From: a virus
Lineage: Duplodnaviria > Heunggongvirae > Uroviricota > Caudoviricetes
Length of the DNA stretch: 64,000 nucleotides
Direction: 5' to 3' (one strand)
IMG/VR virus record: IMGVR_UViG_3300027007_000013
The notes under the pieces are model-generated. The model was not told the DNA's origin. It searched no databases and saw nothing but the letters and a program-made list of their open reading frames with translations. Shown piece by piece: positions 1 through 63,902 of this stretch. Position 1 is the stretch's first letter. Every line of letters starts with the position of its first letter. The position numbers and the translations under genes are program-made.

Positions 1-171
1 CCCGACGACTGGTACTCGCACCACTACCTCGACAGTGACCGTCAGCGCGAGATCGTCGAATCGCACTGCGACCAGGCGAGCCTCAGTGAGGGAGAGCGAA
101 CGCCCGTGTTCATGACCGCGATACTCCACTACGGACCCGCCTCGATACCACCAGAAGGGGTGGATGTATGA
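1..171 (+). CDS. hypothetical protein, C-terminal fragment (5' end lies outside the window)
   Basis: open frame from the window edge to TGA at 169-171; acidic composition like its neighbours. Confidence 0.3.
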   Translation, partial: PDDWYSHHYLDSDRQREIVESHCDQASLSEGERTPVFMTAILHYGPASIPPEGVDV

Positions 172-683
172 GCGAGTTCGTCCACGACCTGAATCGGTAC
201 GAGTTCCGGAGTGGGAAAGTCAGCCTGGACTTCCGACTGGACGTCCCGAAGGCGCCTCACGAGGACCTGAAAAGCAGTGTGACCATCGAGGAGGGGCTGG
301 TCGACTGCTTCGAGCTCAGGCTTGGCCTGTTGTCACGGGACCAGTACGAACCCGACGAGATACGTGAGGAGATGAACGCCATCGTCGGTGAGATGGACCT
401 CCCGCGGACTCGCTATCGAGCGCAGCGAGAGGAAATCATCGAGATGGAGGTCGAAGAACACGGACTCGATCCGGAGCGCATCCCCGACAAAGACCCCGAC
501 GATGAAATCAACCCCAAGATCTCGTACGATCCACACTGGGGAGAACTCGGGTTCTACCAGATACACCTCGAGTGCCACTCGTTCTGGCCGCCGATCTGGC
601 ACGAGGACGAGTTCATGGAGTTCGTAGAGGCGTACACCGCCGAGTTCGTGGAGCGGTTCGACTGGGATGATCTCGATGACTAA
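168..683 (+). CDS. hypothetical acidic protein
   Basis: 171-aa ORF, D/E-rich; start overlaps the upstream stop (ATGA). Confidence 0.5.
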   Translation: MSEFVHDLNRYEFRSGKVSLDFRLDVPKAPHEDLKSSVTIEEGLVDCFELRLGLLSRDQYEPDEIREEMNAIVGEMDLPRTRYRAQREEIIEMEVEEHGLDPERIPDKDPDDEINPKISYDPHWGELGFYQIHLECHSFWPPIWHEDEFMEFVEAYTAEFVERFDWDDLDD

Positions 684-1302
684 GAACACAGACTATCTGC
701 AACAGCACGGTCCCGTGGCGCCCACTGAGCTCCCCGTTCGAGGTGTCTCGTCAATTGATAAGATGAGCGGGCTCTGGAAGTTCAAGGTGAGTACCGGTAC
801 GGTCTCACGTGTCGGCGGGAGCCTGACACCGGTGTACTACCTCCGTGACATTCACCCACCCGAGCTCGTCGTGCAGCGGTGGTTAGAAGTGAACGAGCGT
901 GCTGTCGAGATGACTCCACGACACGGATTGCGGATGATATTGCGCCGTACTGGGAGCGAGTTCCACGACGCTATCGACGACCTACTCCCCATGGACGATT
1001 CCATGAAGGGGAGGGATCGGGTGGCCAGTGACGGTCAGAACAACCAGCGGATTCAACAGATAATGAGTAAAGTAGAACCACAGACAGCGGTAGGTATAGA
1101 GGAGTATCGAGTCCCGACCCCCGACGAGCTGAGAGAGCTCCGTCGTGATCTCGGCGTCACGCAATCGCAACTGGCGAGCGCGATCGGCTCGCAACAGACG
1201 ACGATCAGCCAGTTCGAGGTTGGGAACACGGACATGATGTCGTCAACGCTCCGAAAAGCCGTTGACTACCTGCGGGAGGTCGGTGATGTCGACGAGAGAT
1301 GA
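667..1302 (+). CDS. XRE-family helix-turn-helix transcriptional regulator
   Basis: C-terminal segment LRELRRDLGVTQSQLASAIGSQQTTISQFEVG matches the Cro/C1-type HTH pattern. Confidence 0.6.
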   Translation: MISMTKNTDYLQQHGPVAPTELPVRGVSSIDKMSGLWKFKVSTGTVSRVGGSLTPVYYLRDIHPPELVVQRWLEVNERAVEMTPRHGLRMILRRTGSEFHDAIDDLLPMDDSMKGRDRVASDGQNNQRIQQIMSKVEPQTAVGIEEYRVPTPDELRELRRDLGVTQSQLASAIGSQQTTISQFEVGNTDMMSSTLRKAVDYLREVGDVDER

Positions 1303-1756
1303 TCCCCACTTCATGGACGAAGTCGCGGGGAAGTTGGACGACCAGGGAACGTGCATCCTCTGCACCAAACCCACGCAGTCACACGCAGTCCTGATCAAAC
1401 CGAACCCCGAGTCGCACTCGTTCGACGTTGGTACGGTCGAAGATATGGAGGAGACGCTTGTCTCGCCACTATCGCTCTGTCACTCGTGCTACGTCGAGTT
1501 CGAGGGTGACGCGGAGTTGATCGCAGAAGCATACGAGATCAAGTTCCGCGAGATGAACGATGCGGCCGGGCTCGACTTCGAGAACCAGCTGGAGACCATG
1601 TTCGAGATGATCGAGAACGACGAGTACATGCTCTGTGTCGAATGTGGCTGGCTCGCCAGCTCAGAGTTCGACAAGGACGAGTGTCCAGAGTGTGGTGGGG
1701 ATGTCGTTCTGGAACGGGGGCGAGATGCACTGGAGGGTAACGAGTACACGCTATGA
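1286..1756 (+). CDS. zinc-finger protein (CxxC pairs)
   Basis: ILCTKP...CHSC and CVECG...CPECGG cysteine pairs; start uncertain (alternative ATG at 1309). Confidence 0.45.
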   Translation: MSTRDDPHFMDEVAGKLDDQGTCILCTKPTQSHAVLIKPNPESHSFDVGTVEDMEETLVSPLSLCHSCYVEFEGDAELIAEAYEIKFREMNDAAGLDFENQLETMFEMIENDEYMLCVECGWLASSEFDKDECPECGGDVVLERGRDALEGNEYTL

Positions 1757-2049
1757 CAGACATAGAGATCGAGACGAGAGAAGTGACCCGAACCGAGCAC
1801 TACGTCGAGCTCGGTGGAGAGAAGTTAGGTGTCGCCGAAGTGCTGGACTTCCTCGACGCTATCGAGGGGACGGATGGGTTCGCCCCGCTCCGGTGGAGCA
1901 GAGAGTATGACCACGTCGCTGAGGCCCTGATGGACGAAGGGATCGTCTCACGAACGGCCCGAGGAAGTTGGTACGAAGCAGATCTCGTTGCCCGGACTGA
2001 GCTCTACGACCAGCTACTTGAGCAGTACATCGAGGCCACCGATGGGTAA
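1753..2049 (+). CDS. hypothetical protein
   Basis: 98-aa ORF, start overlaps the upstream stop, acidic. Confidence 0.45.
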   Translation: MTDIEIETREVTRTEHYVELGGEKLGVAEVLDFLDAIEGTDGFAPLRWSREYDHVAEALMDEGIVSRTARGSWYEADLVARTELYDQLLEQYIEATDG

Positions 2050-2311
2050 GATGTACGACGAACACGGAGAGGTGCTGGAGTTCGTCGGCCACGAACAGAC
2101 ACGAACGCGGGGCGTTCTCCGGACCGATGGGATGGGACGATGGAGCATCGGACCCGAGACGCTCCATTCGCTCCTCCCAGACGGTATCGAGGAGGTTCAG
2201 GACGGCGACGACCTGGACGAGGAGCCCGAGTACGTGTTCCTGTTCAACATCACGGCCTATCGGCCGACGGGAGAGTTCCGCGAAGATGACCCCCACCCCG
2301 AAGACGCATGA
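2044..2311 (+). CDS. hypothetical protein
   Basis: ATG overlaps the stop of the previous gene (ATGGGTAAG); acidic C-terminus. Confidence 0.4.
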
Positions 2312-2525
2312 TGAGCACCTCCGACGCCTGTGTCCTCAAGCACCAATGACCGACCACCACCTACCACCAGAAACGGTTGAGATGACCCTCCCCAGATGGA
2401 TGGTCAAATGGCTCCGTGGCTCTGCGAGACACGAGAAACACACCGCTGTAACACCTGAAGGAGAAGCAGACGCGGAACGGATCGAGCAGATGCTGACCTA
2501 CTACCTGGAGATAGACGATGAGTGA
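2286..2525 (+). CDS. hypothetical protein
   Basis: in-frame ATG inside ORF 2127..2525, chosen to minimise overlap. Confidence 0.3.
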   Translation: MTPTPKTHDEHLRRLCPQAPMTDHHLPPETVEMTLPRWMVKWLRGSARHEKHTAVTPEGEADAERIEQMLTYYLEIDDE

Positions 2526-6827: not shown

Positions 6828-6937
6828 AGATCCTGAACCCAGAGTCTATCGTCGCATCGTACCCCAGTATGTAGTAGTTACGCATCGCACATCGGTACCA
6901 CCAGCAACGACCGTACGTACACACTTTCGACGCTTAA

Positions 6938-7252
6938 GTGGGTAGCGGCCCATATAGGACTATGATTCGCATCGAGTGCGACGAGGCGTACCCATTCCTG
7001 ATGGGGTATCTCACACGTAGTTTCGAGAAAGAGATCGACGGTCAGCGGTGTGGTCCCGAAACGATCATGGCGGCGATGGACGCCGAAGGGGACGAACTGG
7101 TTATGACCGAGCTCCAGGCCAAGTGTGTGGTGGCGCTGTTAGAAGATGGATACGATGTCGAGGAATTGGACAACACGAAGGAAGCCATCGAGAAGTTAGA
7201 ACAGTTGAAAGATGACCTAACCACTGCACTCACTACCACCAGCAGCGGGTGA
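6938..7252 (+). CDS. hypothetical acidic protein
   Basis: 104-aa ORF diverging from the methyltransferase promoter region; ends in the ACCACCAG motif. Confidence 0.5.
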   Translation: MGSGPYRTMIRIECDEAYPFLMGYLTRSFEKEIDGQRCGPETIMAAMDAEGDELVMTELQAKCVVALLEDGYDVEELDNTKEAIEKLEQLKDDLTTALTTTSSG

Positions 7253-7273
7253 TTGAACATGTCAAGAAGGGCT

Positions 7274-8070: not shown

Positions 8071-8519
8071 AAGTTTTCTGTAGTTGTGTCCAAGTTTAGT
8101 TGTGAAAGTGGGTTTGGACTGAGTGCAAGCTGGGTTGCGTTTGTGTATGGAAAGTGTCTCGTTTTGCTGAGGGGGGTGAAATCGCTATAGGGGAGTGGAT
8201 TTTGGATAGGGAGATTTTCGGACAAAATCGAGAGATGCTCGTTTAGAGACGCCGCTATTCGGTGGATACAGGCCTCCTACGGGCCTTCTGTGGGCACTTC
8301 AGATCGTCTACGAAGGGCACTCTCGGGGCTTCTCGGGCCTGTTTAGAGGCCGACGAAGCACTATGCGTGGATTCTGTGGCGCGGTATTTGGACGTTTGTC
8401 TATATATTCGCCCAGGACGCGATCTGCGACGTCGTCGGTGCGCCCAGGCGCTCCTGGTGGTAGCACGACGGGTGCGCGCGAACTGTCGATGGAGGGTCCA
8501 GAGTGCTCGTTCTCGCAAA

Positions 8520-12639: not shown

Positions 12640-12830
12640 ACGACGTCGAGTACGCGCTCTCCTGTGTCGAGATCGTGCACGGCTACCGCGATTACGTTCC
12701 GGAGGAGGTGCTGATGGGCGAGCCCGAGGTCGAACGGTTCGACAGTGCAGTGGCGAAGCTCGAACGCGCGATCGAGATGATCGATCCCGACGACCTCGCA
12801 GCCTACCACCAGCAGCGGGAGGCCGAGTGA
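12636..12830 (+). CDS. hypothetical acidic protein
   Basis: 64-aa ORF. Confidence 0.45.
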   Translation: MNDVEYALSCVEIVHGYRDYVPEEVLMGEPEVERFDSAVAKLERAIEMIDPDDLAAYHQQREAE

Positions 12831-15860: not shown

Positions 15861-16181
15861 ATGCCCCGACCGATCGAACGGATGGGTTGTGTTGCCGACC
15901 GACTGAGCGACGAGTGGGAGCTCGATGACATCGTGATCGAGCCGTCGGCGACCGTGACAGCAATCTACCGTCACGTATCCGGGGCGTACGTCATGTGGTC
16001 GGCCGACCCGGGACACACGGTACAGTTGTGGGAGGCCGACGGATCGGTCGAGACGTGGCTCGATGACGACGAGTTCGCTGACCTGGATTCGGCGACCGAA
16101 ACTGTCCAGACCTGCGTGGAAGTCATCGAACATGCGACCAACCGCGCCCTACCACCAGCAGCGTCGACCCCGCGCCCGTAA
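15861..16181 (+). CDS. hypothetical acidic protein
   Basis: 106 aa, with the GGAGTACCAGAG leader. Confidence 0.5.
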   Translation: MPRPIERMGCVADRLSDEWELDDIVIEPSATVTAIYRHVSGAYVMWSADPGHTVQLWEADGSVETWLDDDEFADLDSATETVQTCVEVIEHATNRALPPAASTPRP

Positions 16182-16991: not shown

Positions 16992-17398
16992 TCTCGACCC
17001 TGCTGCGGTTTGCATCGTTCCTGGTGGTAGTGAGCGGTTCGATTCCGTGACGATGCCTGGCCCCCGAGCCCTCAGACGATACGTTGATAGGTTCGCGGGG
17101 CCTATGCTCACGCGGCATCCGTTAGTGATGCCGTTCCGTTCGGGTGGGATAGCACGCGTCGGGCTGTCTCGGCAAGGGCAACCACGTCAGTCGAGATCAG
17201 AGGCTCGTGCAAACCCGTTGCCCGGGGCATTTGTCCCCGGGCGCCCTTTGGTACCGCCTCGAGCGAGAGCTCTTGTTCTCTGACATCGCGTATCCGCGCC
17301 CGAGCGCGCAAACCCGGTGTGATCATGCTACGATCCTGTTCTATCAGCAATATTATCTGACAAAGATATTATTATATCAGCTCCAGCCTAAGGTAAAG

Positions 17399-22478: not shown

Positions 22479-22844
22479 CGCCGACCAGCGCACTACCACC
22501 AGCAGCGGCTGGCCTGCGCACCGGTTTTCCGCCGTGCCCCGTCGCCCACGTGACCCTCGTTTCCGCTCCGCCCGCGACTGTCTCGTGCGATCGTCGCGCC
22601 CTGCTTGCGTACGTGTCCCCCCACTGTTACGCTCGTCACGCCTGCGTTCGCGGCCTGTGCTATCCGCGTCCGACCCCTGTTTCATCTCCGCGTGCCAAGG
22701 CGCGGCAACCCGGTGGCGTCCCCGTCAGCAAACGGGCCCTTTCTGCAAGCAATCCGACACTGAAATCTATAAAACGCTGTCTCAAGCCCTCTACACGAGG
22801 ATTTAGACCAGAACCTTTATATCAAATCAAGTTCAAGAAGAAGT

Positions 22845-23353: not shown

Positions 23354-23569
23354 GTGAGTTCCGTGCAGCGGCGGTTGTTCGAGGAGTCGGCGGTCGGGGC
23401 GGTCTGGGTCGAAGACAGTGACGGGGGTCGCGCGCTGGTGACCGTCGAGCGGCACCCGACGGTGTCGATGGGACGTCTGCTCGAGGCGCTCCGGGGACGT
23501 GACGACGTCGAGACGGTGCGCCAGACGACAGCGACGCACGTCGAGGCGATCGTGCGAGGTGACGCCTGA
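23354..23569 (+). CDS. hypothetical protein
   Basis: 71 aa; followed by a 27-aa hydrophobic peptide ORF at 23569..23649. Confidence 0.4.
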   Translation: MSSVQRRLFEESAVGAVWVEDSDGGRALVTVERHPTVSMGRLLEALRGRDDVETVRQTTATHVEAIVRGDA

Positions 23570-23746
23570 TGCTGGTGGTACTGCTCGTTGCCCTGCTCGT
23601 GGTGCTGTTCGGCGTCTGGCTCGTGCTGGCCGCGGCTACCGCGTTCTAACCTCGCGCGACGCGCCGCGGCAACCCGGTGAATCGGTCTAAGGGCTGTTAC
23701 TACCGCATCACTGATATTTAATACCTCATGCGTCGAAGATGAAGAT

Positions 23747-27369: not shown

Positions 27370-27645
27370 GGCCCCGGCTCCCGCCTCGGCCTACGCGCGC
27401 CAAGGCGCCGCAACCCGGCAACGCGTGTGGGTACGTACCGACGTGTGTGTATGTACAGACGCCGACCCCGAACCCCGATTCGCCCGACCGGCTGCACTAC
27501 CACCAGCAGCGACCGGCTCAGCCGACAAAAAACGGGCCCACATCACGACGGTTTTCACGCGCGGAATCCAAAACGAACGCCTCAGGGCTCCTACGCGCGG
27601 AATGTGACCAGAAACTATATACCTGTCAAAGTACAAGTATGTAAT

Positions 27646-27882: not shown

Positions 27883-28473
27883 GGCGGGCGAGCGGGCTTT
27901 TTTGTGGGCGCTGATGTCGCGTGCCGATTTTCCGCCGTGCCCCGCGCCGCGTCGTCCAGCCGAACGGTGGGTGTCGTTCCCGTGGGCGCTCGAGCTGACG
28001 CCGTGTCGTACGGTGACGCTCTGACCCGTGCAGTCGGTCGCGTCGTACGGCGGGCCCCCTGAACGGCGCCCCACTAAAGTCAAATTTTAGATATATCCTC
28101 GTTTCGACCTACTTTTCAGGGCACACCGCTGTGAGAGGTGCGTATCGACAATAATCTATCATAACCCCTCCCGAATAGCTCCCCATAACCCTGTCTTCAA
28201 CGATGTCGCCCGTCCACGTCCCCATTTGTCGGGCACACCGATTTTCAGGCACTCGCCTCTGGTGGTAGTGAGTTTCGGTGACATGAACCATATCGATTGA
28301 CCTGTATGTACCCATATTTCGAATCATAACGAAAATTATATATCCGCTTACTGACTATCTTAGAATGTCCCTCCCGTGGAACGGAGTGACGCATTGCATG
28401 AAGCGAACGCACGACCGGCCTGGAGACCCGGTCACGTACCCGAGTAGCACCGCACTCACTACCACCAGGGACG

Positions 28474-35460: not shown

Positions 35461-35477
35461 CCACTACCACCAGAAGC

Positions 35478-40260: not shown

Positions 40261-40487
40261 TGCCCCGGGCGAAGGACGTGGTGAGCGTCCTCCTGGTCGG
40301 CGCTGTCACGAGCGTGTGGCTCTACCAGACGCTCGACCCGGCGCTGGCTGAGGACTTCGCTATTAAAGCCCTCGCACTCACGTTCGCGGCTGCTGGTGGT
40401 ATCACACTGTTCGGTCGTGGGACGATGAGAGCTGCAAAGAGGGTGGCTGAATCGACACTCCGCCCGCGAGAAAAGACCGAGGAATGA
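40257..40487 (+). CDS. small membrane protein
   Basis: two hydrophobic segments. Confidence 0.4.
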   Translation: MMPRAKDVVSVLLVGAVTSVWLYQTLDPALAEDFAIKALALTFAAAGGITLFGRGTMRAAKRVAESTLRPREKTEE

Positions 40488-40974: not shown

Positions 40975-41994
40975 ATGCAAGCTGTTGTAGATGCAACTGG
41001 AAACGCACCCAGCCTCGCACCCCTGAACGCGCGCCGCTCTCGATTCAGCCTCCCAGTCGCTGGAGAGACGATCATCGAGCGCGTCGTAAGCGGGCTCGTC
41101 GATATCGGTGTTGAACGGATCGCGATTGTCACGGACGAAGACTCCATCCGGACGATCTTCGGCGCTGAGCGCGGTGTCGATCGGCTCGGCATGGAGGACG
41201 TCGAACTGTGTTTCATCCCGCACTACTACGGCGACACAGCGTCGAAGACACGCGGTCTGGCGGAAGACACTGGCTTCCTGTGGGTCCGTGGCGATACACT
41301 CTACGACTGGGAGACGATTGCCCAACTCGCCGAGCACGATGCGGCACTCGGATACGTCCCTCACCCGCACGAGGCGGCCCACGGGAAGCTCCAGATCAAC
41401 GGTGACGACCTGCGCGCATCGCCCGGCGAATACACACACTCTGGGGCACACCTGGCCTACGCGTACAAGTTCCCACCCCGAGCTCACGAGTGGGACTACG
41501 GAATCGATCCGATGACAGAGGAACTCGCCACGGAGCCCGGCACAGAGGAGGTCTCGATTCGCTGGACGCCGATCACGAACCCGAGAGACTATCTGCAAGC
41601 GAACCTCGAGCGGGCCGGTGCTGGTGGTAGTGAGATGTCGGTCGATGGAACACTGGTCGGACCCTGCGTGATCGGAGAGGACGTGACCGTCGGACCGGGT
41701 GCTGTGGTCGAATCGTCTGTGCTCCTGGACGGTGCGACTATCGGTGCCGGATCGTACGTTGGATACTCAGTGGTCGACGAGGGCGTCACTATCGAACAGA
41801 ACGTGACGACGAATACGCGAGCAGCCAGTGGGGAAACGGTCGTCGCAGAGTTCGGCGGCGAACGGGTAGACACTGGGATGACGGAGTTCGGGACAGTCTT
41901 CGGCCCAGGGGTGACGGTTCAGGCCGGGGCGACGGTCATGCGCGGGACCACGATCGACACGGGACTGACTGTTGATCCTGGGGAAGTTCGCTGA
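40975..41994 (+). CDS. sugar-phosphate nucleotidyltransferase fused to a left-handed beta-helix (GlmU-like)
   Basis: N-terminal nucleotidyltransferase fold; C-terminal hexapeptide repeats VGPCVIGEDVTVGPGAVVESSVLLDGATIGAGSYVGYSVV. Confidence 0.6.
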   Translation: MQAVVDATGNAPSLAPLNARRSRFSLPVAGETIIERVVSGLVDIGVERIAIVTDEDSIRTIFGAERGVDRLGMEDVELCFIPHYYGDTASKTRGLAEDTGFLWVRGDTLYDWETIAQLAEHDAALGYVPHPHEAAHGKLQINGDDLRASPGEYTHSGAHLAYAYKFPPRAHEWDYGIDPMTEELATEPGTEEVSIRWTPITNPRDYLQANLERAGAGGSEMSVDGTLVGPCVIGEDVTVGPGAVVESSVLLDGATIGAGSYVGYSVVDEGVTIEQNVTTNTRAASGETVVAEFGGERVDTGMTEFGTVFGPGVTVQAGATVMRGTTIDTGLTVDPGEVR

Positions 41995-42404: not shown

Positions 42405-42902
42405 CAAAAGGGTAGAGAGTCTGAAAGGGATTAGGTAGGAAAGTTTTCATTCCGACGTGTGCCGACCCTGTTTCCAGACCGTAACCCCCCACCTCTCGGG
42501 CCTGTAAACCACTCTCCACGCAATCCGGCCGAAAAGGCCCTCTAAACCGCACTCTCAGAGCTTCTATCCTTTGAATATGCCATGTCTGAGCGACATTCTG
42601 GGTATCCAGACTGGTTTCCCCTCACCAACCACTCATGTCCGATACCGCAGGATAACCACCCTGACACTCGTACCACCAGGAACGAAGGCCCGTATTCCTT
42701 CAAGATATACAGAGACAAGCAGAGTGGAATCGATAGACTGCACTGACCTCCACGCATATACGAAAAACGACAGAACAGAAATCTTTAATATCACATCCCA
42801 CATATTTCTATTCACCCACAGCTACCCAGTGGGACGTGCTCCCCGAGTGCGTAGAACGGAGATATACATGAAGGAATGGCGACAGAAGTGGAGGAATAGT
42901 CT

Positions 42903-48217: not shown

Positions 48218-48238
48218 AAAACACCTACCACCAGCAAC

Positions 48239-48278
48239 GCCCGTTTGGAGCACGGCGGTTCAACTCCGCCGGCGGGCC
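48239..48278 (+). ncRNA. tRNA-like acceptor/T-arm minihelix
   Basis: GCCCG..(9 nt)..CGGCGG-TTCAACT-CCGCCG-GG-CGGGC. Confidence 0.45.
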
Positions 48279-49349: not shown

Positions 49350-50035
49350 TGGCGGTTACGACACAGGTCCCGACAACACTCGCCGACTGGTACCACCAGC
49401 ACGACTACGGCGCCGTGCAGGACCGGCTCGCCACTGTCCGAGACGTCACGCTCGACGGTGAGATCGAGCAGGCGGCCGAGAACATCCGGCGAGCTTACCA
49501 CTTCGCCGTCCTCTCGATTCGGACGGTCAAAGACATCCACGAGCATGCGTTCGACCTATGGATGGACGGCACTGCGCTTGAGGACGCAGTACGCATCGCC
49601 GGCGTCAACTTTTACCGGAACAAAGTCGGTTGGATTCGACAGACTGAGGAGTCGGTTCACTGGAAGGGGCTTGTTCGGAGTGTTCGAGAACACGTCGCCC
49701 GTGACGAGCTCGGCTCACTCATGGACCTGAACGAACGACTGTCCGGTGTCCACTACGCGAAGTGGGGCTTCACACTCGCACTGTCCGGTGTGTGGGAAGT
49801 GATCTGTATCGATAGCAACGTCAAGAATCACTACGGGATCGACGGGCGACTCGATCTTCGGTCGAACGATGGGATCGACACCTACCGTGAGATGATCGAC
49901 CGTGTGGTGCGCGACGTGCCCGGCGACGTCCCGCCGTTTGTCGCGCAGTGGGTGGTGTACGATTACCAGCGCGGTGAACACGCCACGCACGACCCGTACT
50001 TCGAATCGGCCTACCCGTTCGCGGAGGGTGTCTGA
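49349..50035 (+). CDS. hypothetical protein, possibly DNA-modification accessory
   Basis: 228 aa directly upstream of the two TGT-like genes. Confidence 0.4.
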   Translation: MAVTTQVPTTLADWYHQHDYGAVQDRLATVRDVTLDGEIEQAAENIRRAYHFAVLSIRTVKDIHEHAFDLWMDGTALEDAVRIAGVNFYRNKVGWIRQTEESVHWKGLVRSVREHVARDELGSLMDLNERLSGVHYAKWGFTLALSGVWEVICIDSNVKNHYGIDGRLDLRSNDGIDTYREMIDRVVRDVPGDVPPFVAQWVVYDYQRGEHATHDPYFESAYPFAEGV

Positions 50036-51036: not shown

Positions 51037-52255
51037 CCTCGTCGACGACGGTCATCGTCCCACGCCGGAACGAGACACGTTCCGTCACGTCTGGGCGAGA
51101 GAACGCGGGCCCTGGGTCGTCCTTGAGCGCATCAAAGGGACGCGAATGGAGAGCGGTGAGATCGTCGCTGAGTGCGATGACTACCTGGAGGCACTCGCGT
51201 TCGCTGTCGATTCCGAGACAGAGGACTGGGTTATCACGGAGATCGCTGGTCAGTGCTGCAACTGTGGACAGCTGGTTGTCGTCGACGAGCTCGCTGAGGA
51301 GCCGACGTGTCCACACTGCAACGACGTCCTCTGGCTGGCCGCCGAGCAGCGACGGTTGGCCGAGTTTGCCCGCGACCGGCTGGCGTTCGATATGTACTGG
51401 GGTGTTGCCTCTGGCGCACAGCGGAAAGCGATCCGTGTCCTTGCGCACGGATTCGACCATCGCGAGCCAGACAATCTCAACATCATGCTGAACTACGCGA
51501 CGCAGAATAATCAGCTCCTGACCGAGAAGGGACTGGAGCTCATGACGAACGTCGAGACCCTGTTTATCGACTCTGGCGGCTACTCGTTCTTCGAGCGAGA
51601 GGGTGGATACGACACTTCAGACTGCGAGTACCTGCGATACATCGCCCGCGTGCAACCTGATTACTTCGCACTCAGGGATTACCCGTGTGAGCCTGACATC
51701 CTGGATGCACGCGACACGACCGTCCAATACCACCAGCAACGGACGACAGAGAAAGCCCAGATCCTGCTCGATATGCTTGATGACTTTGCGATCACGGCCA
51801 CACCAGTTGCGGTCGTGCAGGGGTGGTCGCCCGATGATTATCGGTCACACCTCCGGCAACTCTATCGCGCTGGTGTCCTCGACGAGGTGGAGCACATCGG
51901 CATTGGGACCCTCTGTGGTCGCGAAGACGTTGCCCAGATCGCGACCATCGTCGAGGCCGTCAGAAAGAGTGTTGGACCGGACTTCAAAATACACGGGTTC
52001 GGTGTCAAGCGAGAGGCGTTAGAACGCCCGGACGTCGTCGAGTCACTCGACTCGGCCGACACACTCGCGTACAGCATGAAGCCGATGTACGATTCAATCG
52101 CTACTGGTGGTATGGTCGCGAACACGTGGAAACACGAAGCGCGAGGGTTCCTGGATTACTATGCCACGATCCACGAGTCGCTCAGACGAATCGAGCACGG
52201 GGAAGCCGACGAAGATATAGTCGCCCAACAGACGCTTGCATCATATGGTGACTGA
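51026..52255 (+). CDS. tRNA-guanine-transglycosylase-family protein, DpdA-like DNA-guanine transglycosylase
   Basis: LFIDSGGYSF matches the TGT substrate-Asp motif (bacterial FTDSGGFQ); VVESLDSAD matches the region of the second Asp; N-terminal CxxC...CxxC. Confidence 0.6.
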   Translation: MATNLVDDGHRPTPERDTFRHVWARERGPWVVLERIKGTRMESGEIVAECDDYLEALAFAVDSETEDWVITEIAGQCCNCGQLVVVDELAEEPTCPHCNDVLWLAAEQRRLAEFARDRLAFDMYWGVASGAQRKAIRVLAHGFDHREPDNLNIMLNYATQNNQLLTEKGLELMTNVETLFIDSGGYSFFEREGGYDTSDCEYLRYIARVQPDYFALRDYPCEPDILDARDTTVQYHQQRTTEKAQILLDMLDDFAITATPVAVVQGWSPDDYRSHLRQLYRAGVLDEVEHIGIGTLCGREDVAQIATIVEAVRKSVGPDFKIHGFGVKREALERPDVVESLDSADTLAYSMKPMYDSIATGGMVANTWKHEARGFLDYYATIHESLRRIEHGEADEDIVAQQTLASYGD

Positions 52256-53439: not shown

Positions 53440-53810
53440 TGTTCAACCCAGTTTCATGGGTTCGACGGTTGGTGTCGGGGTCTCCAGACCCTGACCCCTC
53501 CCCTGTGGAGGCCGACATCGAGCCTCCGGAGACTGTGGCGCGCGATGTAGCACTCTACCCGGACATCGACGACATGATCGAGTTCGCTGAACGCCGCGGT
53601 CGGGTGCTCCGATACGATGATGCAGAGACGGTGGTTGTCAAGCTCGACGAGACACAGTCGATGACGCCGGTTGCTGTCGAACAGATCGACTGCATCGTTG
53701 CTGGTGGTAGTCCGCACCTCCCCGACCATGATGTGTTCGGGACGGAGACGCCTGACCACCCAGTGTTCGAAGCCGACGAGGACCTTCCGGACCACGAGGT
53801 GTTCGCCTGA
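53439..53810 (+). CDS. hypothetical acidic protein with three C-terminal PDH(E/D/P)VF repeats
   Basis: LPDHDVFGTETPDHPVFEADEDLPDHEVFA. Confidence 0.45.
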   Translation: MFNPVSWVRRLVSGSPDPDPSPVEADIEPPETVARDVALYPDIDDMIEFAERRGRVLRYDDAETVVVKLDETQSMTPVAVEQIDCIVAGGSPHLPDHDVFGTETPDHPVFEADEDLPDHEVFA

Positions 53811-55022: not shown

Positions 55023-55222
55023 TGGCGACCGCTGACGAGACGACACAGGAGACCCTCTCACCCATACCACCAGCAGCCCGGTGTGTGAACTACGCCGACT
55101 GTGGCAACGAGACGCCTGGTGGCGAGGATGCTGGGAACATGATGTGCGATGCGTGTCTCGACGCTGCACGTGCTGGTGGGACAGGACACGACCTGGCGAC
55201 GCCCGACGAAGACGACGCATAG
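55022..55222 (+). CDS. small Cys-rich protein
   Basis: CVNYADCG...CDAC. Confidence 0.4.
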   Translation: MATADETTQETLSPIPPAARCVNYADCGNETPGGEDAGNMMCDACLDAARAGGTGHDLATPDEDDA

Positions 55223-58585: not shown

Positions 58586-61576
58586 ATGAGCCAACCAGAC
58601 AGTAGTGTGCGCCTCCCGAAGAAGCAAACAACGGGAGCCACGCTCGAAGACCGACTGACAGAGAACGCGTACCAGCGGATTATTCCACAGCGATACCTCA
58701 AGAAGGACGAGAACGGTGTGCCAACGGAGGAGCCAGAAGACCTGTTCGAACGCGTGGCGAAGAACATCGCCATCGCTGAGGCGATCCACACGGACGAGAC
58801 GGTGTGGATAGAACCCAGGCACATCAAGCCCGACCACCCGCGACGCGAGGACCTGATCCGCGAGGTATTCGACGACTACGGCATCGCTGATGCCGAGGGC
58901 ATGGAGCCGACCACGGAACTGGACGAGGAGAACGCCAAGTGGGTCTCCTACGATACAATCATCGACGACCTCGACACTACCACCAGAAGCGTCGTCGAGG
59001 ACACGAAAGAGCGGTTCCAGGATCGTATGGAGCGTCTGGATTTCATCCCGAACAGCCCCACCCTCGCCAACGCCGGCGACGAGCTCCAGCAACTCAGCGC
59101 ATGTTTCGTGATGTCCCCGGAAGACGACATCGCTGACATCCACGACACGCTTCGTGATGCTGCGCTGACGTTCCAGTCGGGAGGCGGCGTTGGGTATGCG
59201 TTCAGCTACCTTCGACCCTACGGTGACCGTGTCGGCTCGACTGGTGGTATCGCATCGGGCCCGCTCACGTTCATGCGGACCTACGACCAGATGTGCCGGA
59301 CGATCGCCCAGGGCGGGATGCGCCGCGGCGCGCAGATGGGTGTGATGCGAGTCACGCACCCTGACGTGATCTTCTTCATCCACTCGAAGAACAAGGACGT
59401 CTCACTCGCGCAGGCCCTCCGTCTGAACGACCCGAAGGACTACGTAAACTCGTCGTACGGGGAAGCCCTCGAAGAAGCCCGCGACACACTCGAGCGGTTC
59501 ACTGACGACGAAGGACGTCTCGAACCACACCTCCGAAACGCTGTCGAGGCACAGCTCGCCAACTTCAACATCAGCGTGACGGTCACCGACGACTTCATGC
59601 TGGCCGTGGAGAACGACGAGCTCCACACGTTCATCAACCCGCGCACTGGACAGCCCCACATCGCGACCGAGGAGACCAAAGAGATGTACGAGTGGTTCGA
59701 CCTGGGTCACCACGTCACTGTGGGAGAGCCACTACGTGTCCCGGCTCGCGAGATCTGGGATGACATCATCGAAGGTGCGCACGAGAACGGCGAACCAGGG
59801 GTGCTGTTCATCGACAGTGCGAACGCGGACCACTCGTTCCCGACGGAATCGACGCCGACATGGCGCGACGACGATCAGTTCGAGATGTCGACGACCAACC
59901 CCTGTGGCGAGCAATGGCTCATGGAGAACGAGGCGTGCAATCTGGGCCACATAAACCTCTCGACGCTTGTGGCCGAGGATGCACCCGACTGGCGAACGTA
60001 CCTCGACACATACGGCGCCCCGAGTGGGTACGAACCCGACCGGTCTGAGATGGCATACGTCGTTGGTGATTTCCTCGAGAAAGCCATCGACTGGGAGGAG
60101 CTCGACGCCCGCGTCGACGACGGCGTTCGGTTCCTCGACAACGTCGTCACCATGTCGTCATTCCCCACCCCGGAGATCGAACAGACAGTACGGGATAACA
60201 GGAAGATAGGACTCGGGATCATGGGACTGGCCCAGATGTTCGTGCAGATCGGGACCAAGTACGGGAGCGATGTCTCGAACGAAGTGACCAGACAGGTGAT
60301 GCGCCACATCAACCAGCGGTCGAAAGACGCATCGCTACGTCTGGCTGACCAGCGTGGGTCGTTCGAAAACTGGGAGCACTCGAAGTACGCCGACCCGACC
60401 GCCCACACAGACTGGTTCGAGCGCCAGACTGGAGAGGCGGCCGACGTCTGGGAAGATGGCTACCCGATACGGAACCACAACACGACCACAGTGGCGCCGA
60501 CTGGGACAACTGGAATGATCGGAAACACGAGCGGTGGATGTGAACCGATCTTCGGTGTTGCACACTTCAAAAACGTCTCTCAGGACATCCAGGGAGACGA
60601 GCAGCTCGTTGAGTTCGACGACTATTTCCTCCGTGTCCTGGAGGCTAACGACGTCGACGTCGAAGCGGCGAAGACAGAGTGTCTCGAGCAGATGCAAGCC
60701 AACGAGTTCGAGGGTGTGAAGGGGCTCGAAACGGTCCCGGACGAGATCGGCGAGCTATTCGTCACCACGGACATGCTCAGTGGCCTCGAGCACGCGTCTG
60801 TCCAGTGTGCCGCCCAGGAGGGCGTGGACAGTGCGATCAGCAAGACCGTCAACTTCCCCAACAGCGCGACCAAACAGGACGTGCAGGAAGTGTACGCGTA
60901 CCTGTGGAGCCACGGAGCCAAGGGAGGAACGATCTACCGCGATGGGTCCCGTTCGAAGCAAGTGATCTCAACCAGAGCTGATCACGGAGACGTGGCCGGC
61001 GGAGAGCCCATGTCGCGAGAGGACGCTGAGGCTCGAATCGACGAGCTCGCAGAGGAACACGGTATCCCACTGGCCGCCGCTGAGCAACCCGCTACTGGTG
61101 GTATCGAGCTGGCTGAGCCGGGCAAGGTTCTGTCTGCTCGACGCGAGCGCATCAAGACGGGATACGGGAACATGTACGTCAACATCGGGTTCGACGACGA
61201 GGGTCGCCCCATCGAGACGATCTGCAACATCGGGAAGTCGGGCGGGTTCACCAACTCGATGGTCGAGGCCATCGGCAAACTGTCGTCGCTGGCACTCCAG
61301 GCTGGCGTTCCAGCCGAGGAAGTAGTCGAGAAACTCGACGGCATCTCCTCGCCGGACATCGGGTTCGACGATGGTGAGCAGATAGCCTCACTCCCGGACG
61401 GTATCGCCACCGCACTTCGTCGTGCGGTCGAGGCCGAGAGTGAAGCGACACTCGAGATCAAAGCCCACAACGATCACAACCCGAACGAGGAGTCCTGTCC
61501 GGACTGTGGCGGCGACGTCGTTTACGACGGTGGGTGCCCGAAGTGCGCCCTCGAGTGTGGTTGGTCGAAGTGCTGA
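58586..61576 (+). CDS. nrdJ: ribonucleoside-diphosphate reductase, adenosylcobalamin-dependent (class II)
   Basis: 996 aa; active-site NPCGEQ; C-terminal CPDCGG...CPKCALECGWSKC zinc ribbon. Confidence 0.85.
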   Translation: MSQPDSSVRLPKKQTTGATLEDRLTENAYQRIIPQRYLKKDENGVPTEEPEDLFERVAKNIAIAEAIHTDETVWIEPRHIKPDHPRREDLIREVFDDYGIADAEGMEPTTELDEENAKWVSYDTIIDDLDTTTRSVVEDTKERFQDRMERLDFIPNSPTLANAGDELQQLSACFVMSPEDDIADIHDTLRDAALTFQSGGGVGYAFSYLRPYGDRVGSTGGIASGPLTFMRTYDQMCRTIAQGGMRRGAQMGVMRVTHPDVIFFIHSKNKDVSLAQALRLNDPKDYVNSSYGEALEEARDTLERFTDDEGRLEPHLRNAVEAQLANFNISVTVTDDFMLAVENDELHTFINPRTGQPHIATEETKEMYEWFDLGHHVTVGEPLRVPAREIWDDIIEGAHENGEPGVLFIDSANADHSFPTESTPTWRDDDQFEMSTTNPCGEQWLMENEACNLGHINLSTLVAEDAPDWRTYLDTYGAPSGYEPDRSEMAYVVGDFLEKAIDWEELDARVDDGVRFLDNVVTMSSFPTPEIEQTVRDNRKIGLGIMGLAQMFVQIGTKYGSDVSNEVTRQVMRHINQRSKDASLRLADQRGSFENWEHSKYADPTAHTDWFERQTGEAADVWEDGYPIRNHNTTTVAPTGTTGMIGNTSGGCEPIFGVAHFKNVSQDIQGDEQLVEFDDYFLRVLEANDVDVEAAKTECLEQMQANEFEGVKGLETVPDEIGELFVTTDMLSGLEHASVQCAAQEGVDSAISKTVNFPNSATKQDVQEVYAYLWSHGAKGGTIYRDGSRSKQVISTRADHGDVAGGEPMSREDAEARIDELAEEHGIPLAAAEQPATGGIELAEPGKVLSARRERIKTGYGNMYVNIGFDDEGRPIETICNIGKSGGFTNSMVEAIGKLSSLALQAGVPAEEVVEKLDGISSPDIGFDDGEQIASLPDGIATALRRAVEAESEATLEIKAHNDHNPNEESCPDCGGDVVYDGGCPKCALECGWSKC

Positions 61577-62505: not shown

Positions 62506-62870
62506 CGTTCGAGTACCAGCACGCCCGGGCCGACCGGGTCGTCGACGGTGACACGATCTGGATGACAGTGGATGTTGGGTTCTACCAGTACGTGAAGATC
62601 CCGTTCCGACTCATCGACGTCGATACGCACGAGATCCACTTCGTTAGCCACGATAGCGAGGAGTACAAGCAGGGAATGGTGGAGAAACAGTTCGTCATCG
62701 ATTGGCTCACTGAAGCTGAGCTCGGTCGTGGCGACTGGCCGCTGGAGCTGATCACATACGGCACCGGAAAGTACGGTCGGTGGTTGGCCTACGTCAAGCG
62801 CAAGAGTGACGGCGCGATCCTGAACGAGGACCTGCTCGACGCGTTCGACGACATTCGGTACGGTGAGTGA
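62502..62870 (+). CDS. staphylococcal-nuclease-like thermonuclease
   Basis: RVVDGDTI, RLIDVDTHE and GKYGRWLAYV match the SNase catalytic and calcium-site motifs. Confidence 0.65.
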   Translation: MTFEYQHARADRVVDGDTIWMTVDVGFYQYVKIPFRLIDVDTHEIHFVSHDSEEYKQGMVEKQFVIDWLTEAELGRGDWPLELITYGTGKYGRWLAYVKRKSDGAILNEDLLDAFDDIRYGE

Positions 62871-63129
62871 GATGGGGCGTGAGAGCGTACCGGTCAGTCG
62901 TCGCGACCTGCTGATCGCCCTGGGCGCCGGGTCCGTAACACTGGCTGGCGACTTCGTCAGAACGAGAACGACAGTCGTTGGGGACGAGTGTGAGCCAGTG
63001 ACGGTGTGTACACCCACCGGATACGGTGACTGTGGCTACGGTGAGGGTCCCTTTGGCGGAACCGACCCGAGCGCCGACTTGCTCGGCTACAGTGAGGGTG
63101 GGTACGGGACCGGAGGATACGGCGGATAG
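62863..63129 (+). CDS. Gly/Tyr-rich secreted protein with a twin-arginine signal
   Basis: SRRDLLIALGAGSVTLAG is a Tat-type motif. Confidence 0.45.
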   Translation: MSEMGRESVPVSRRDLLIALGAGSVTLAGDFVRTRTTVVGDECEPVTVCTPTGYGDCGYGEGPFGGTDPSADLLGYSEGGYGTGGYGG

Positions 63130-63132
63130 GCG

Positions 63133-63166
63133 CACGTACATATACACACGCACATATGTACGTGCA
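63133..63166. repeat. 34-bp palindrome, copy 3 of 3 identical, between convergent genes
   Basis: identical to 7274..7307. Confidence 0.9.
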
Positions 63167-63171
63167 GGGTT

Positions 63172-63726
63172 TTAGAGCAGGTTGTCGACGACAGTTAGTG
63201 TTCGGGTGGTGAGTTCGTCGAGCCCACGATTGTTTTGTACGACGGCGTCTGCACGCTGGAAGTAGTCCCTGACCCCCGCATCGTGCTCGCGATCGGTCCG
63301 TTCGCGCAAATATCGAGCACTGTCGATGGGGTCCTCGCCCCCTTTCCCCCTACCCTCACGGGTTGCAAACCACCTAACACGGTCGCCGAAGGTCGCGTCG
63401 ACCCACACAACGTGTGCCTCAATGTCTAACTCGGCCGCGAGGTAGTCAACTTCGGCGGGATTCCGGGTCCCTTCCAGGACAACGACATCGGACTCGTCGA
63501 GATGCTCGCGGATGGGGCCGGTGCAGGGAACGGCCACTCCATACTCACCATGCTCCTCTCTGAGAGCTTCGGCGTAGGCCCACACTTCATCCTCGTCGCT
63601 CGACTCCATGGCTTCTCTGAGCGTCTCACCCATGCTCACGACTGGAAACCCCTGTTCTCCCAGGAGTTGAGCGGCTGTGCTTTTCCCACTTGCCGGATAT
63701 CCCGCGAGTGCTATGATAGTCATCAT
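63172..63726 (-). CDS. P-loop nucleoside/nucleotide kinase-like protein
   Basis: Walker A IALAGYPASGKST; likely start at the internal MM rather than at 63771. Confidence 0.55.
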   Translation of the reverse strand: MMTIIALAGYPASGKSTAAQLLGEQGFPVVSMGETLREAMESSDEDEVWAYAEALREEHGEYGVAVPCTGPIREHLDESDVVVLEGTRNPAEVDYLAAELDIEAHVVWVDATFGDRVRWFATREGRGKGGEDPIDSARYLRERTDREHDAGVRDYFQRADAVVQNNRGLDELTTRTLTVVDNLL

Positions 63727-63902
63727 GATATGTAATATATCCCGAAACAAGAACATTGCGCTCACTACCACCAGAAGCGTTTGATTGTGCCCCGTCTATC
63801 CGGGTGAGGTGACCCGAGTATAACAAATATATTCTCGATTGTATCTGTTCAAAGAGTAGTTACGAAAACTGGTATATATGTTCGTGCGTGTTTGACAACT
63901 TG

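Follow-up and report, generated by a model that had tools for sequence, protein, structure and literature searches.

The nine-base word TACCACCAG occurs 32 times, 20 on the plus and 12 on the minus strand by exact search, in the 64,000-nucleotide stretch of DNA analyzed here (the window), and points to a virus-specific DNA-recognition system. Our tentative interpretation is that the copies form a binding-site array for a co-evolving, sequence-specific DNA-binding protein that the virus itself encodes; the nearest analogues are the stoperators of mycobacteriophages, although the present copies are not locked in orientation. The preliminary description had listed 31 copies, missing the one at 23572 on the minus strand and displacing six others by 1-2 nt (these lie at 146 not 147, 12804 not 12805, 58978 not 58977, 8454 not 8456, 17021 not 17020 and 61095 not 61094). 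The over-representation that it reported is, if anything, stronger than claimed: 100 dinucleotide-preserving shuffles give an expectation of 0.23 with a maximum of 2, an order-2 Markov model gives 0.5, and shuffling codons inside genes gives 0.47 against 18 copies seen there, so that its roughly 60-fold enrichment becomes about 64-140-fold. As all three kinds of control yield only 0.2-0.5 copies, composition and codon usage fail to explain the excess, which settles the earlier concern that codon or dinucleotide bias might be its cause. An origin of the excess in composition, codon usage or a recurrent protein motif has nothing in its favor but the word's three-base, C/A-rich periodicity, and it was rejected as having a negligible probability; besides the controls, the copies use all three reading frames, non-coding DNA and both strands, and in control DNA from haloviruses and haloarchaea even the most enriched of the listed 9-mers number no more than 8-9 per 50 kb.

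The 9-mer is an invariant core. The window has only 16 one-mismatch variants, which we judged to be about background for the 27 possible words, and TACCACCA is always followed there by G. Around the core lies a real but softer extension, downstream with A at +10 (29/32), R at +11 (28/32), C at +12 (29/32) and G at +13 (28/32), and upstream with C at -3 (22/32), A at -2 (16/32) and C at -1 (19/32). The resulting asymmetric consensus, c-a-C-TACCACCAG-n-A-R-C-G, carries about 26-29 bits, more than the approximately 23 bits required for uniqueness in a 4 Mb host genome, and 22 copies match TACCACCAG-N-A-R-C-G. The three-base periodicity of the word takes the form ACC ACC AGC AGC. We propose that the 9-mer would be the core of an asymmetric double-stranded DNA site of 14-22 bp, (gCaCTc)AC-TACCACCAG-N-ARCG.

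The window is a portion of an approximately 90-100 kb haloarchaeal-type tailed virus, an uncultivated archaeal virus from a salt lake. Codon-model and public gene calls agree that it is transcribed almost wholly on the plus strand, the exceptions being 3309-6827, 8255-8827, 57470-57673 and 63172-63756. The copies (Table 1) are spread over this genome at about one every 2 kb, slightly more evenly than random (CV 0.74, P about 0.05; in a close relative CV 0.65, P about 0.02), a spacing no less suggestive of a "coverage" function than of gene regulation. Fourteen of the 32 lie outside called genes, non-gene DNA being 19% of the total. Many have a stop codon no more than 30 nt away or an AT-rich promoter-like element beside them, and several lie 6-27 nt 5' of start codons, at variable distances from starts and stops alike; an AT-rich promoter-like repeat that the window also contains is distinct from the GC-rich TACCACCAG signal. 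A position shortly after stop codons, as first proposed for six copies, holds for 22494, 35465 and 48226; those at 7234 and 16150 are instead in the last 20-30 nt of genes, and the one at 63766 is 10 nt upstream of a minus-strand gene start. More than half of the copies are intragenic. These sit in tolerant frames; all eight minus copies in plus-strand genes read xCT-GGT-GGT-A, and by inspection one alternative frame usually hits a TAG stop. Relative to the local gene, orientation is 12:5 at gene boundaries and in non-coding DNA, 8:7 deep inside genes and 20:12 overall. The earlier view that a 2:1 strand bias follows transcription does not hold, because nearly all genes are on the plus strand and about 11 of the 12 minus copies are therefore antisense.

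Table 1. Copies of the motif and associated elements in the window, with the state of the corresponding site in the close relative
Feature	Position	Strand	Context	Close relative
Copy TACCACCAGaaggg	146..159	+	ATG at 168 begins 14 nt downstream	outside fetched DNA
Copy TACCACCAGaaacg	2362..2375	+	ATG at 2382 11 nt downstream, or within weak ORF 2346-2525	
Copy	6896..6909	+	non-coding, between minus-strand methyltransferase gene start and gene 6962	decayed (GATGTCACCAG)
GTACGTAC	near 6896..6909		begins 17 nt past T of copy	
Copy cacTACCACCAGcagcg	7234..7247	+	final 19 nt of gene 6962-7252	orthologous TGCCACCAG
Copy	8449..8462	-	within minus-strand gene 8255-8827 (public gene call L133 18088-18660)	
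Copy	12804..12817	+	3' end of gene 12636-12830; next start 18 nt on	
Copy	16150..16163	+	final 31 nt of gene 15861-16181	orthologous site
Copy	17016..17029	-	non-coding; stop at 16991 30 nt before	orthologous site
Copy cacTACCACCAGcagcg	22494..22507	+	stop at 22478 16 nt before	
Copy, exact 9-mer, weak tail	23567..23580	-	3 nt past stop 23569; TATA-like repeat 143 nt downstream	
Copy	27498..27511	+	non-coding gap 27369-27646	
Copy	28254..28267	-	590-nt non-coding gap; AT-rich stretch downstream; inverted pair with 28460(+)	
Copy	28460..28473	+	start at 28474 6 nt downstream	
Copy	29781..29794	+	flanked by stop 29762 and start 29816	
Copy	30916..30929	-	gene 30638-31060, + frame ..A-A-G-G-S..	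orthologous TGCCACCAA
Copy	32704..32717	+	gene 32541-33074	no counterpart
Copy	33353..33366	-	6 nt past stop 33352; TATA-like ATATTAAATATT ~15 nt downstream	orthologous site
Copy	35465..35478	+	5 nt past stop 35460, upstream of large terminase gene	orthologous site
Palindrome GTGTGTACGTACATAC	after 35465..35478			
Copy	39020..39033	+	portal gene, C-terminal acidic tail	orthologous site
Copy	40388..40401	-	gene 40257-40487	orthologous site
Copy	41616..41629	-	gene 40975-41994	orthologous site
Copy	42671..42684	+	non-coding gap 42365-42903; TATA-like element 113 nt downstream	orthologous site
Copy	48226..48239	+	stop at 48217 9 nt before	orthologous site
9-mer only, no ARCG tail	49391..49399	+	gene 49349-50035	identical TACCACCAG
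Copy	51728..51741	+	DpdA gene	orthologous site
Copy	52099..52112	-	DpdA gene	orthologous site
Copy	53696..53709	-	gene 53505-53810	decayed: TTCCACCAG
Copy	55065..55078	+	just past gene 54705-55022, within small public-call gene 55022-55222	TTCCACCAG
Copy	58978..58991	+	ribonucleotide reductase gene	orthologous site
9-mer, weak tail	59236..59249	-	ribonucleotide reductase gene	TGCCGCCAG
Copy	61090..61103	-	ribonucleotide reductase gene	orthologous site
Copy	63766..63779	+	non-coding gap; AT-rich TATA-like stretch 25-38 nt upstream	

The site is under selection, its positions are conserved, and its sequence changes in concert between relatives. The closest relative compared, IMGVR_UViG_3300027007_000012, comes from the same ENA sample as the contig of the window and has an 83% identical portal protein. 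The 59 kb fetched from it, to which the comparison is limited, contain 24 copies of TGCCACCA and two of TACCACCA. Fifteen sites are shared in the same orientation (of 21 alignable in the window and 17 in the relative), all with a single switch, ..cAC-TA.. to ..cGA-TG.., in surrounding DNA that is only 72-90% identical. The 9-mer at 49391 is probably a coding coincidence and no functional copy, because the relative has the identical word there. The earlier reading of a DNA-level signal rather than a protein motif is upheld by the use of three frames and both strands and by the conservation of the 15 positions whatever their coding context. Conservation with the switch extends to minus copies in plus-strand genes (30921, 40393, 41621, 52104 and 61095), which argues against an element working in RNA, whether for the processing, the stability or the translation of polycistronic plus-strand transcripts. 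The preferred orientation at gene boundaries and the copies shortly before start codons would suit such a signal, but the variable distances, the lack of a common secondary structure around the copies on inspection and the absence of any Rfam match even at E=1 render it very improbable. Further variants of the motif, TGCCACCA-nn-ARCG, TGCCAACAG-n-ARCG and TGACAGCAG, are found among more distant relatives: the first has 12 copies in 21.9 kb of L124 and 9 in 14.3 kb of L126, the second has 7 in 12 kb of L267, and L266 has 8 copies of cTGACAGCAG in 14.7 kb.

The same comparison bears on the suggestion that an enzyme encoded by the virus modifies the DNA at the site, with the modified base acting as a mark. 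The window encodes both a homologue of the 7-deazaguanine transglycosylase DpdA and, on the minus strand, an 1172-aa Eco57I/MmeI-like methyltransferase. However, DpdA is 90% identical in the relative, so nearly the same enzyme is present in two viruses with differing motifs, and the methyltransferase, an earlier candidate partner, now seems unlikely in that role: the 59 kb fetched from the motif-bearing relative yielded no homologue and carry a SNF2-like ORF at the locus. Moreover, a modification target gives orthologous site positions no reason to persist. The motifs known for DpdA and methyltransferases have a length of 2-8 nt. Those of haloviruses are likewise within this range (PMC7230728). 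Modification is thus quite improbable as the function of the site.

Judging from 150 kb of replicons of Haloferax, Haloarcula and Halorubrum, the motif is not a host property: its extended form, which the window contains 24 times, does not occur in them. With 26-29 bits the word is expected to be absent from a host genome. When 185,579 genomes were scanned with a 17-mer, the only matches were single and scattered ones in unrelated bacteria. A rival reading makes the site a private "self" tag for a viral DNA-translocating machine, either as dispersed pac-like sites at which the terminase would start packaging or as a virus-specific Chi-like stop for a helicase-nuclease that would spare viral DNA and degrade that of the host or of competitors. 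Consistent with such a tag are the absence of the word from the sampled haloarchaeal DNA, the even spacing, the conserved copies in long genes, the orthogonal variants in co-occurring relatives, the conserved copy between the terminase gene and the gene upstream, a UvrD-like helicase gene just upstream of the window, and the E. coli Chi octamer GCTGGTGG inside the reverse complement of 16 of the 32 copies. Chance is the simplest account of this last match. The Chi sites known are 5-8 nt long, strongly polar with respect to replication and determined by the host RecBCD or AddAB, whereas the present signal, though likewise an over-represented asymmetric word found across a genome, spans 14-22 bp, shows no polarity, is specific to each virus rather than to a host and is missing from the sampled haloarchaeal DNA; the classical Chi role entertained earlier is accordingly disfavored. 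To our knowledge, neither RecBCD nor AddAB occurs in haloarchaea, and we know of no dispersed pac system. The 224-aa protein encoded upstream of the terminase gene shows only conservative window-specific changes, which also counts against a tag, and we regard this proposal as unlikely.

The long, asymmetric and nearly invariant site, with its dispersed and fairly evenly spaced copies, could alternatively be the recognition sequence of a virus-encoded nicking or cleaving enzyme, marking single-strand interruptions or entry points for recombination or replication. HNH-type endonuclease genes are present in the window (3022-3312, and 45550-46008 with its paralogue 46011-46751). Localized single-strand interruptions are known in the DNA of T5 and phiKMV-like phages. 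A halovirus precedent is the pleomorphic virus HRPV-3, in which strand discontinuities follow GCCCA at many of 27 sites (PMC3384331). In all these systems, as here, a short conserved word recurs across a viral genome, and in them it denotes a physical peculiarity of the molecule; their motifs or nicks are one-stranded or follow transcription polarity and the HRPV-3 word has only 5 nt, but here 12 of the 32 copies are on the opposite strand of a genome transcribed one way. A nicking function is conceivable but doubtful.

Among the roles first suggested, a dispersed regulator-binding site fits best, and it corresponds to the binding array that we favor. In Cluster A phages, asymmetric 13-bp sites number 20-30 over the whole genome, mostly not associated with promoters, and from one heteroimmune phage to another the stoperator consensus varies together with the repressor (PMC6550527, PMC9283540). 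The operator and stoperator arrays of these mycobacteriophages (L5 gp71, Bxb1 gp69 and the TipsytheTRex repressor) resemble the present one in the asymmetric 13-14 bp site, 20-30 or more copies at about one every 2 kb, a tendency of the sites toward gene boundaries and away from promoters, near-invariance within a genome and a shift of consensus between related viruses. They differ in that stoperators lie predominantly in one orientation to transcription, and in belonging to bacterial phages; here genes contain more than half of the copies, the orientation is mixed, and the host is archaeal, with no repressor, integrase or partition genes found and nothing indicative of a temperate lifestyle seen in the approximately 85 kb examined. 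Closer to home, the haloviruses HF1 and HF2 carry intergenic repeats of 58 bp (class I) and 29 bp (class II) (PMC8707807, PMC7230728), which are likewise repeated cis-elements in haloarchaeal tailed virus genomes; however, they are AT-rich, strictly intergenic and promoter-carrying, unlike the GC-rich and also intragenic TACCACCAG signal. Counting against a binding array are the mixed orientation, the conserved intragenic copies, the spacing and the lack of temperate signs in those 85 kb; in addition, no cognate DNA-binding protein was identified. The HTH_10/BAT-like protein (56353-57009) shares 52% identity with its orthologue in the relative, against 72-95% for neighbors, but its predicted recognition helix is identical despite this divergence, and the gene is apparently absent from the corresponding position in L124. 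No relatives were found for an Xre-like protein (667-1302).

The reader of the site would be a single virus-encoded protein that binds all copies and differs in specificity among related viruses. It probably works as a monomer or in an asymmetric complex, recognizing two boxes, TRCCACCA and ARCG. Selection maintains a site about every 2 kb over the whole genome of this haloarchaeal-type tailed virus. On the model of the Cluster A stoperators, binding may act genome-wide, possibly by blocking or insulating transcription at gene and operon boundaries or by silencing the genome; alternatively, it may endow each virus with a private regulatory or immunity specificity.

An exact search of the window recovers 32 copies of the 9-mer TACCACCAG, of which 20 are in + and 12 in - orientation. 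The over-representation reported in the preliminary description therefore stands, whereas its count of 31 does not, as the copy at 23572 (-) had been missed and six coordinates were off by 1-2 bases. The excess is upheld against an order-2 Markov model, which predicts 0.5 copies; in 100 dinucleotide-preserving shuffles the chance expectation is 0.23 with a maximum of 2, and a codon shuffle within each gene predicts 0.47 intragenic copies as against the 18 observed. TACCACCAG is by far the most over-represented GC-rich word of the window; its other frequent 9-mers represent acidic-codon repeats with just a 3-5-fold excess. In control sequences (50 kb of the halovirus HGTV-1 and three 50 kb haloarchaeal megaplasmid samples) the top 9-mers among the matches listed reach 8-9 copies. 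There is next to no chance that the excess is a by-product of composition; we regard the signal as genuine, far from random and of biological significance.

In the window G lies directly 3' of TACCACCA in all 32 occurrences, and one-mismatch versions of the 9-mer number 16 over 27 possible words, which we judge to be about the expectation from composition. The flanks are more weakly conserved, with a 5' pattern c..c.cac and a 3' tail N-A-R-C-G (A in 29, R in 28, C in 29 and G in 28 of the 32 copies); 22 of 32 copies fit TACCACCAG-N-A-R-C-G. The site is asymmetric and bipartite, with TRCCACCA and ARCG separated by a 2-bp spacer, and its information content of ~26 bits exceeds the threshold of ~23 bits for a word unexpected in a 4 Mb host genome. 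We found no extended repeat around the copies, with no conservation outside about -8 to +14. Neither dyad symmetry nor a common hairpin was found around the window copies, and it is highly improbable that the word acts as an RNA element.

Although non-coding DNA makes up ~19% of the window, 14 of the 32 copies lie outside called genes. Ten of the 32 are close to a stop codon (within ~30 nt), before or after it and in both orientations, and several adjoin AT-rich TATA-like stretches. The intragenic + copies use all three frames, and all eight minus copies in + genes use the single frame xCT-GGT-GGT-A (A-A-G-G-S); on our reading of the sequence, one of the alternative frames for these usually hits TAG and the other is a hydrophobic run. 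Such frame usage is expected if a DNA-level signal is placed where the protein tolerates it. A strand bias that follows transcription, as previously proposed, is not borne out: the 20:12 division occurs in a genome transcribed almost wholly from the + strand, and, with respect to the local gene, the copies divide 12:5 at gene boundaries and 8:7 well inside genes. The + and - copies are interleaved over the whole window at a mean spacing of 2.05 kb, a little more regularly than random placement would give (CV 0.74, P about 0.05), and motif density is similar in the flanking parts of the genome beyond the window.

A promoter function was rejected, because start-codon distance is variable and a separate, unlinked AT-rich promoter-like repeat precedes the starts instead. 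This repeat, with the pattern ..TATCAG..(A)TATTTAATA(C)..GGATAAG-ATG..AAAA(T)CCCACCC, carries a TATA-like box ~30 nt upstream of start codons and is similar in kind to the promoter-carrying intergenic repeats of halovirus HF2 (PMC8707807). The HF2 repeats are AT-rich units of 29 or 58 bp that lie in intergenic DNA ~30 nt upstream, whereas TACCACCAG is GC-rich, lies within genes in 18 of 32 cases and keeps no fixed distance from starts; the role of HF2-type repeats is filled by the AT-rich repeat and not by TACCACCAG.

A close relative from the same sample (IMGVR_UViG_3300027007_000012) was found via its portal protein, which is 83% identical to that of the window, and is also present in the ENA sample holding the window's own contig. 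Its 59 kb of sequence, rebuilt from three pieces, contain 24 copies of TGCCACCA and only 2 of TACCACCA, with a logo of 29 bits (c..ccc.ct.GA-TGCCACCAG-c-AGCG) and a spacing CV of 0.65 (P about 0.02). Collinear BLASTN alignments of 72-90% identity place 21 window sites in alignable DNA, and 15 of these are motif sites in the relative in the same orientation. Four further window sites are decayed versions in the relative, and at 49391 the relative has an identical TACCACCAG without the ARCG tail; the 49391 copy is probably a coding coincidence. In the reverse mapping 15 of 17 alignable sites of the relative are shared with the window. Because 71% of the sites survive, as against an estimated ~7% for a neutral 13-nt word at ~80% nucleotide identity, purifying selection is acting on them, whether they lie in non-coding DNA or within genes (DpdA, ribonucleotide reductase, portal). 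All 15 shared orthologous sites display the identical switch from ..cAC-TA.. to ..cGA-TG.., which indicates that recognition specificity has switched in concert genome-wide between the two viruses. A role as recombination linker was rejected, as copies are no nearer homology breakpoints than chance (4/29 versus 2.1 expected, P=0.16); between window and relative, breakpoints at gene ends are found in 2/10 cases with the motif and 22/94 without it.

Portal-alignment scans of metagenomes and viral contigs yielded few additional loci. Two further relatives, L124 (GC 47%) and L126 (GC 55%), encode portals 74-75% identical to that of the window, with 12 copies of TGCCACCA-nn-A-R-C-G in 21.9 kb and 9 in 14.3 kb, respectively. 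As TGCCACCA is common to these more distant viruses and the close relative, the derived word is probably TACCACCAG. In the ~61% identity group, L267 carries 7 copies of aaTGCCAACAG-n-ARCG over 12 kb, two of them inverted with respect to each other and 25 nt apart, and L266 has cTGACAGCAG-g-k-g-y-g 8 times in 14.7 kb. L130 offers a weak candidate word only (GATAGCAG, 5 copies), and no such word was found in a 44% identical relative. Since viruses of very different GC content share a word and two similar viruses of one sample differ, the word appears to track virus lineage and not host. As regards host frequency, the extended motif T[AG]CCACCA..A.CG is absent from 150 kb of Haloferax, Haloarcula and Halorubrum replicons, which may not be those of the host, as against 24 occurrences in the window. 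In a scan of 185,579 genomes (one per species) the matches listed for the 17-mer CACTACCACCAGCAGCG are scattered single ones in unrelated bacteria, with no haloarchaeon, no locus with more than one match, no provirus and no host candidate among them, which is weak negative evidence on the host. A 14-mer scan of viral contigs gave just single, chance-like matches, and a literature search for the two 9-mers primer sequences only.

The predicted proteins of the window are strongly acidic (median pI 4.4, D+E 21%). Its genes include those for a T4-type large terminase, a Mu-type portal, a class II ribonucleotide reductase, ThyX, DpdA, an Eco57I/MmeI-like methyltransferase, an HTH_10/BAT-like protein and several Pfam domains of unknown function. 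Contigs with identical genes come from environmental metagenome samples and carry the genome further in both directions, into genes for the tail and other structural components, and one related contig derives from a sample labelled brine. Taken together, these features identify the window as part of a ~90-100 kb uncultivated tailed virus of a haloarchaeon. There is no DNA-level similarity to the phage records of the annotated collection, and the nearest terminases, that of HGTV-1 among them, are 25-31% identical. Codon-model and public gene calls agree on near-total + strand transcription, with the minus-strand exceptions given in the table. No integrase, partition genes or immunity repressor were seen in the window and ~20 kb of flanks, the genome being incomplete and most of its genes unannotated.

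Positions of features, in window coordinates unless a related contig is named
Feature	Position	Strand	Remark
Xre-like protein	667-1302		
Small HNH gene	3022-3312		
Methyltransferase	3309-6827	-	minus-strand exception (gene calls); 1172 aa
Minus-strand exception	8255-8827	-	gene calls
Unannotated protein	17939-18565		
Portal protein P0001	37414-39147		
First paralogue	45550-46008		matches HNH endonuclease PHROG
Second paralogue	46011-46751		adjacent to the first
HTH_10/BAT-like protein	56353-57009		
Minus-strand exception	57470-57673	-	gene calls
Minus-strand exception	63172-63756	-	gene calls
Insert in the relative's ribonucleotide reductase gene	~59904		extra ~1.07 kb
TACCACCAG copies adjoining AT-rich TATA-like stretches	23572, 28259/28460, 33358, 42671, 63766		
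AT-rich promoter-like repeat	8878, 11691, 20079, 23715 (also 33381, 42784)		
Palindrome GTACGTAC	6913, 15283-15312, 21180, 21202, 27431, 35482		8 copies
tRNA T-arm-like hairpins	17037, 32038, 34004, 44097, 48258		intergenic gaps
SNF2-like helicase ORF	26561-30270 (contig of the relative)		at the methyltransferase locus
Large terminase carrying an intein with LAGLIDADG domain	5976-8735 (L123)		
Large terminase carrying an intein with LAGLIDADG domain	6914-9661 (L124)		
Large terminase carrying an intein with LAGLIDADG domain	5519-8191 (L266)		

Several other features of these genomes were observed alongside the array. The exact portal protein is encoded on five contigs (sources jgi, ena, gem), the longest of which, at 320,643 bp, far exceeds the expected virus genome and may represent either a chimeric assembly or a provirus within a host contig. 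The terminase inteins of the three related loci are absent from the window's terminase, and the insert in the relative's ribonucleotide reductase gene is probably another intein. When matched against the relative, the two paralogues are 26% identical to each other. The methyltransferase gene is the sole large minus-strand gene and lies within a motif-free stretch of 4.5 kb; with its SNF2-like counterpart in the relative, the locus looks like a variable defence or anti-defence island. The palindrome GTACGTAC (0.76 copies expected in the window) is apparently always in non-coding gaps, and next to the copies at 6896 and 35465 it begins exactly 17 nt after the T of the motif; it is far more enriched in the related loci L124 and L261, with 10 copies in 4.6 kb of the latter, and may be a second, dimer-type operator or modification site. 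Two of the T-arm-like hairpins, which have GGTTCGAATCC-type 7-nt loops, adjoin motif copies. Mimicry of a tRNA 3' end by ..CC-A-CCA was considered and set aside, as these hairpins fold no better than shuffled sequence and the idea has no further support; ARAGORN predicts no tRNA in the window, and Rfam searches at gathering thresholds and at E<=1 detect no RNA family there.

The exact E. coli Chi octamer GCTGGTGG is present in the reverse complement of 16 of the 32 copies, and the + strand tail AGCG(G) resembles the B. subtilis Chi; the match to Chi sequences is most likely coincidence. Chi sites are words of 5-8 nt, host-determined, shared by viruses of one host and strongly polar. In contrast, 9 positions of the window site are invariant and at least 5 more are strongly conserved (26-29 bits), its extended form is missing from the sampled haloarchaeal replicons (150 kb, possibly not the host's), two related viruses of one sample use different words, and copies of both strands are interleaved. 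Thus, in word length, host determination and strand polarity the array departs from the Chi-like role suggested in the preliminary description, and a classical Chi role is unlikely on account of length, absent polarity, virus-by-virus specificity and the archaeal setting. It is also unlikely that the copies are enzyme sites for nicks or cleavage. This proposal has a halovirus precedent in HRPV-3, but according to that study sites of this kind are confined to a single strand or go with the coding strand (PMC3384331), whereas here the minus strand has 12 of the 32 copies. Unlike the strand interruptions of T5, phiKMV and HRPV-3, the window copies occur on both strands, with ~11 of the 12 minus copies antisense to genes.

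The array might alternatively be the target of a modification enzyme, and the virus-encoded methyltransferase had been named as a candidate. This cognate enzyme does not accompany the motif, as no homologue is found in the relative's 59 kb, where 24 copies are present and a SNF2-like ORF occupies the locus; on these comparisons the methyltransferase would very unlikely be the reader, that is the putative factor recognizing the site. DpdA is 90% identical between window and relative despite their differing words, and we regard the modification-target proposal in general as improbable. The HTH_10/BAT-like protein is 52% identical to the relative's orthologue, against 72-95% for its neighbors, with an unchanged predicted recognition helix (ISSGAVSGRIRR), and its gene is seemingly absent at the corresponding place in L124. 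An unannotated protein (17939-18565) is 46% identical to its orthologue in the relative. The Xre-like protein is encoded in the operon downstream of copy 146 and has no detectable relatives. Among the portal-neighborhood proteins, substitutions between the window and the TGCCACCA group were listed without singling out a candidate, and the 224-aa protein encoded upstream of the terminase gene shows conservative changes only. Pfam, PHROGs and PDB sequence searches with candidate readers gave nothing useful, and no cognate reader was found among the candidates compared.

The long, asymmetric and invariant word, its genome-wide spread, boundary preference and positional conservation, together with its concerted change between relatives and the orthogonal variants of viruses that occur together, require a reader acting in trans. 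Such a factor would recognize ~14-22 bp of double-stranded DNA, its specificity being inherited with the virus. The best-characterized system with these properties is that of the stoperators of Cluster A mycobacteriophages, in which 20-30 asymmetric 13-bp sites are spread over ~50 kb, mostly outside promoters, and are recognized by a repressor, a monomer of two domains, that blocks elongation, with a consensus that differs among heteroimmune relatives (PMC6550527, PMC9283540). We therefore rank first, albeit tentatively and at less than even probability, the reading that the array consists of sites bound by a regulator or silencer that the virus itself encodes. Like stoperators, the window has a 14-bp asymmetric site in 32 copies over 64 kb, with more in the genome flanks. 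Among the viruses compared, the word changes in concert at 15/15 shared sites, and at least two further variants exist. The array is nevertheless not a strict member of the stoperator family, because its copies are not locked to the direction of transcription (20 + / 12 -), over half of them lie within genes, the window and ~20 kb of flanks revealed neither a repressor nor temperate functions, and the host is archaeal. It resembles stoperators most, and differs in orientation and placement.

A more speculative and unlikely possibility is that the array serves as a 'self' barcode private to the virus, to be read by a DNA-tracking machine that the virus encodes, such as a terminase, helicase-nuclease or silencer. 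A host-absent word of ~26 bits, occurring every ~2 kb in either orientation, would allow such a machine to distinguish the genome of its own virus from those of co-infecting relatives and from the host chromosome, and the TAC, TGC and TGCCAAC variants would be orthogonal barcodes born of competition among related viruses. The narrower proposal of a private self tag for packaging or a helicase-nuclease is considered quite unlikely. If true, the barcode would be a virus-encoded functional analogue of Chi or pac, which to our knowledge is undescribed for archaeal viruses.

Whichever machinery is involved, the array is a selected, lineage-specific cis-signal in an uncultivated haloarchaeal virus clade, within which there is clear comparative evidence for a concerted change of the putative recognition sequence. 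The genome-wide arrays of one exact word that we know of are mainly mycobacteriophage stoperators, bacterial Chi/KOPS-type signals and a few nick motifs, and no comparable array for archaeal tailed viruses was found in the literature searched. The signal is exceptionally clean, with 32 exact copies and 26 bits, and the relatives provide a natural experiment in which the same positions bear different words. The reader protein, once named, would reveal a new specificity system in haloarchaeal viruses, be it in regulation, immunity, packaging or self-recognition, and would also supply orthogonal protein-DNA pairs functional in high salt.
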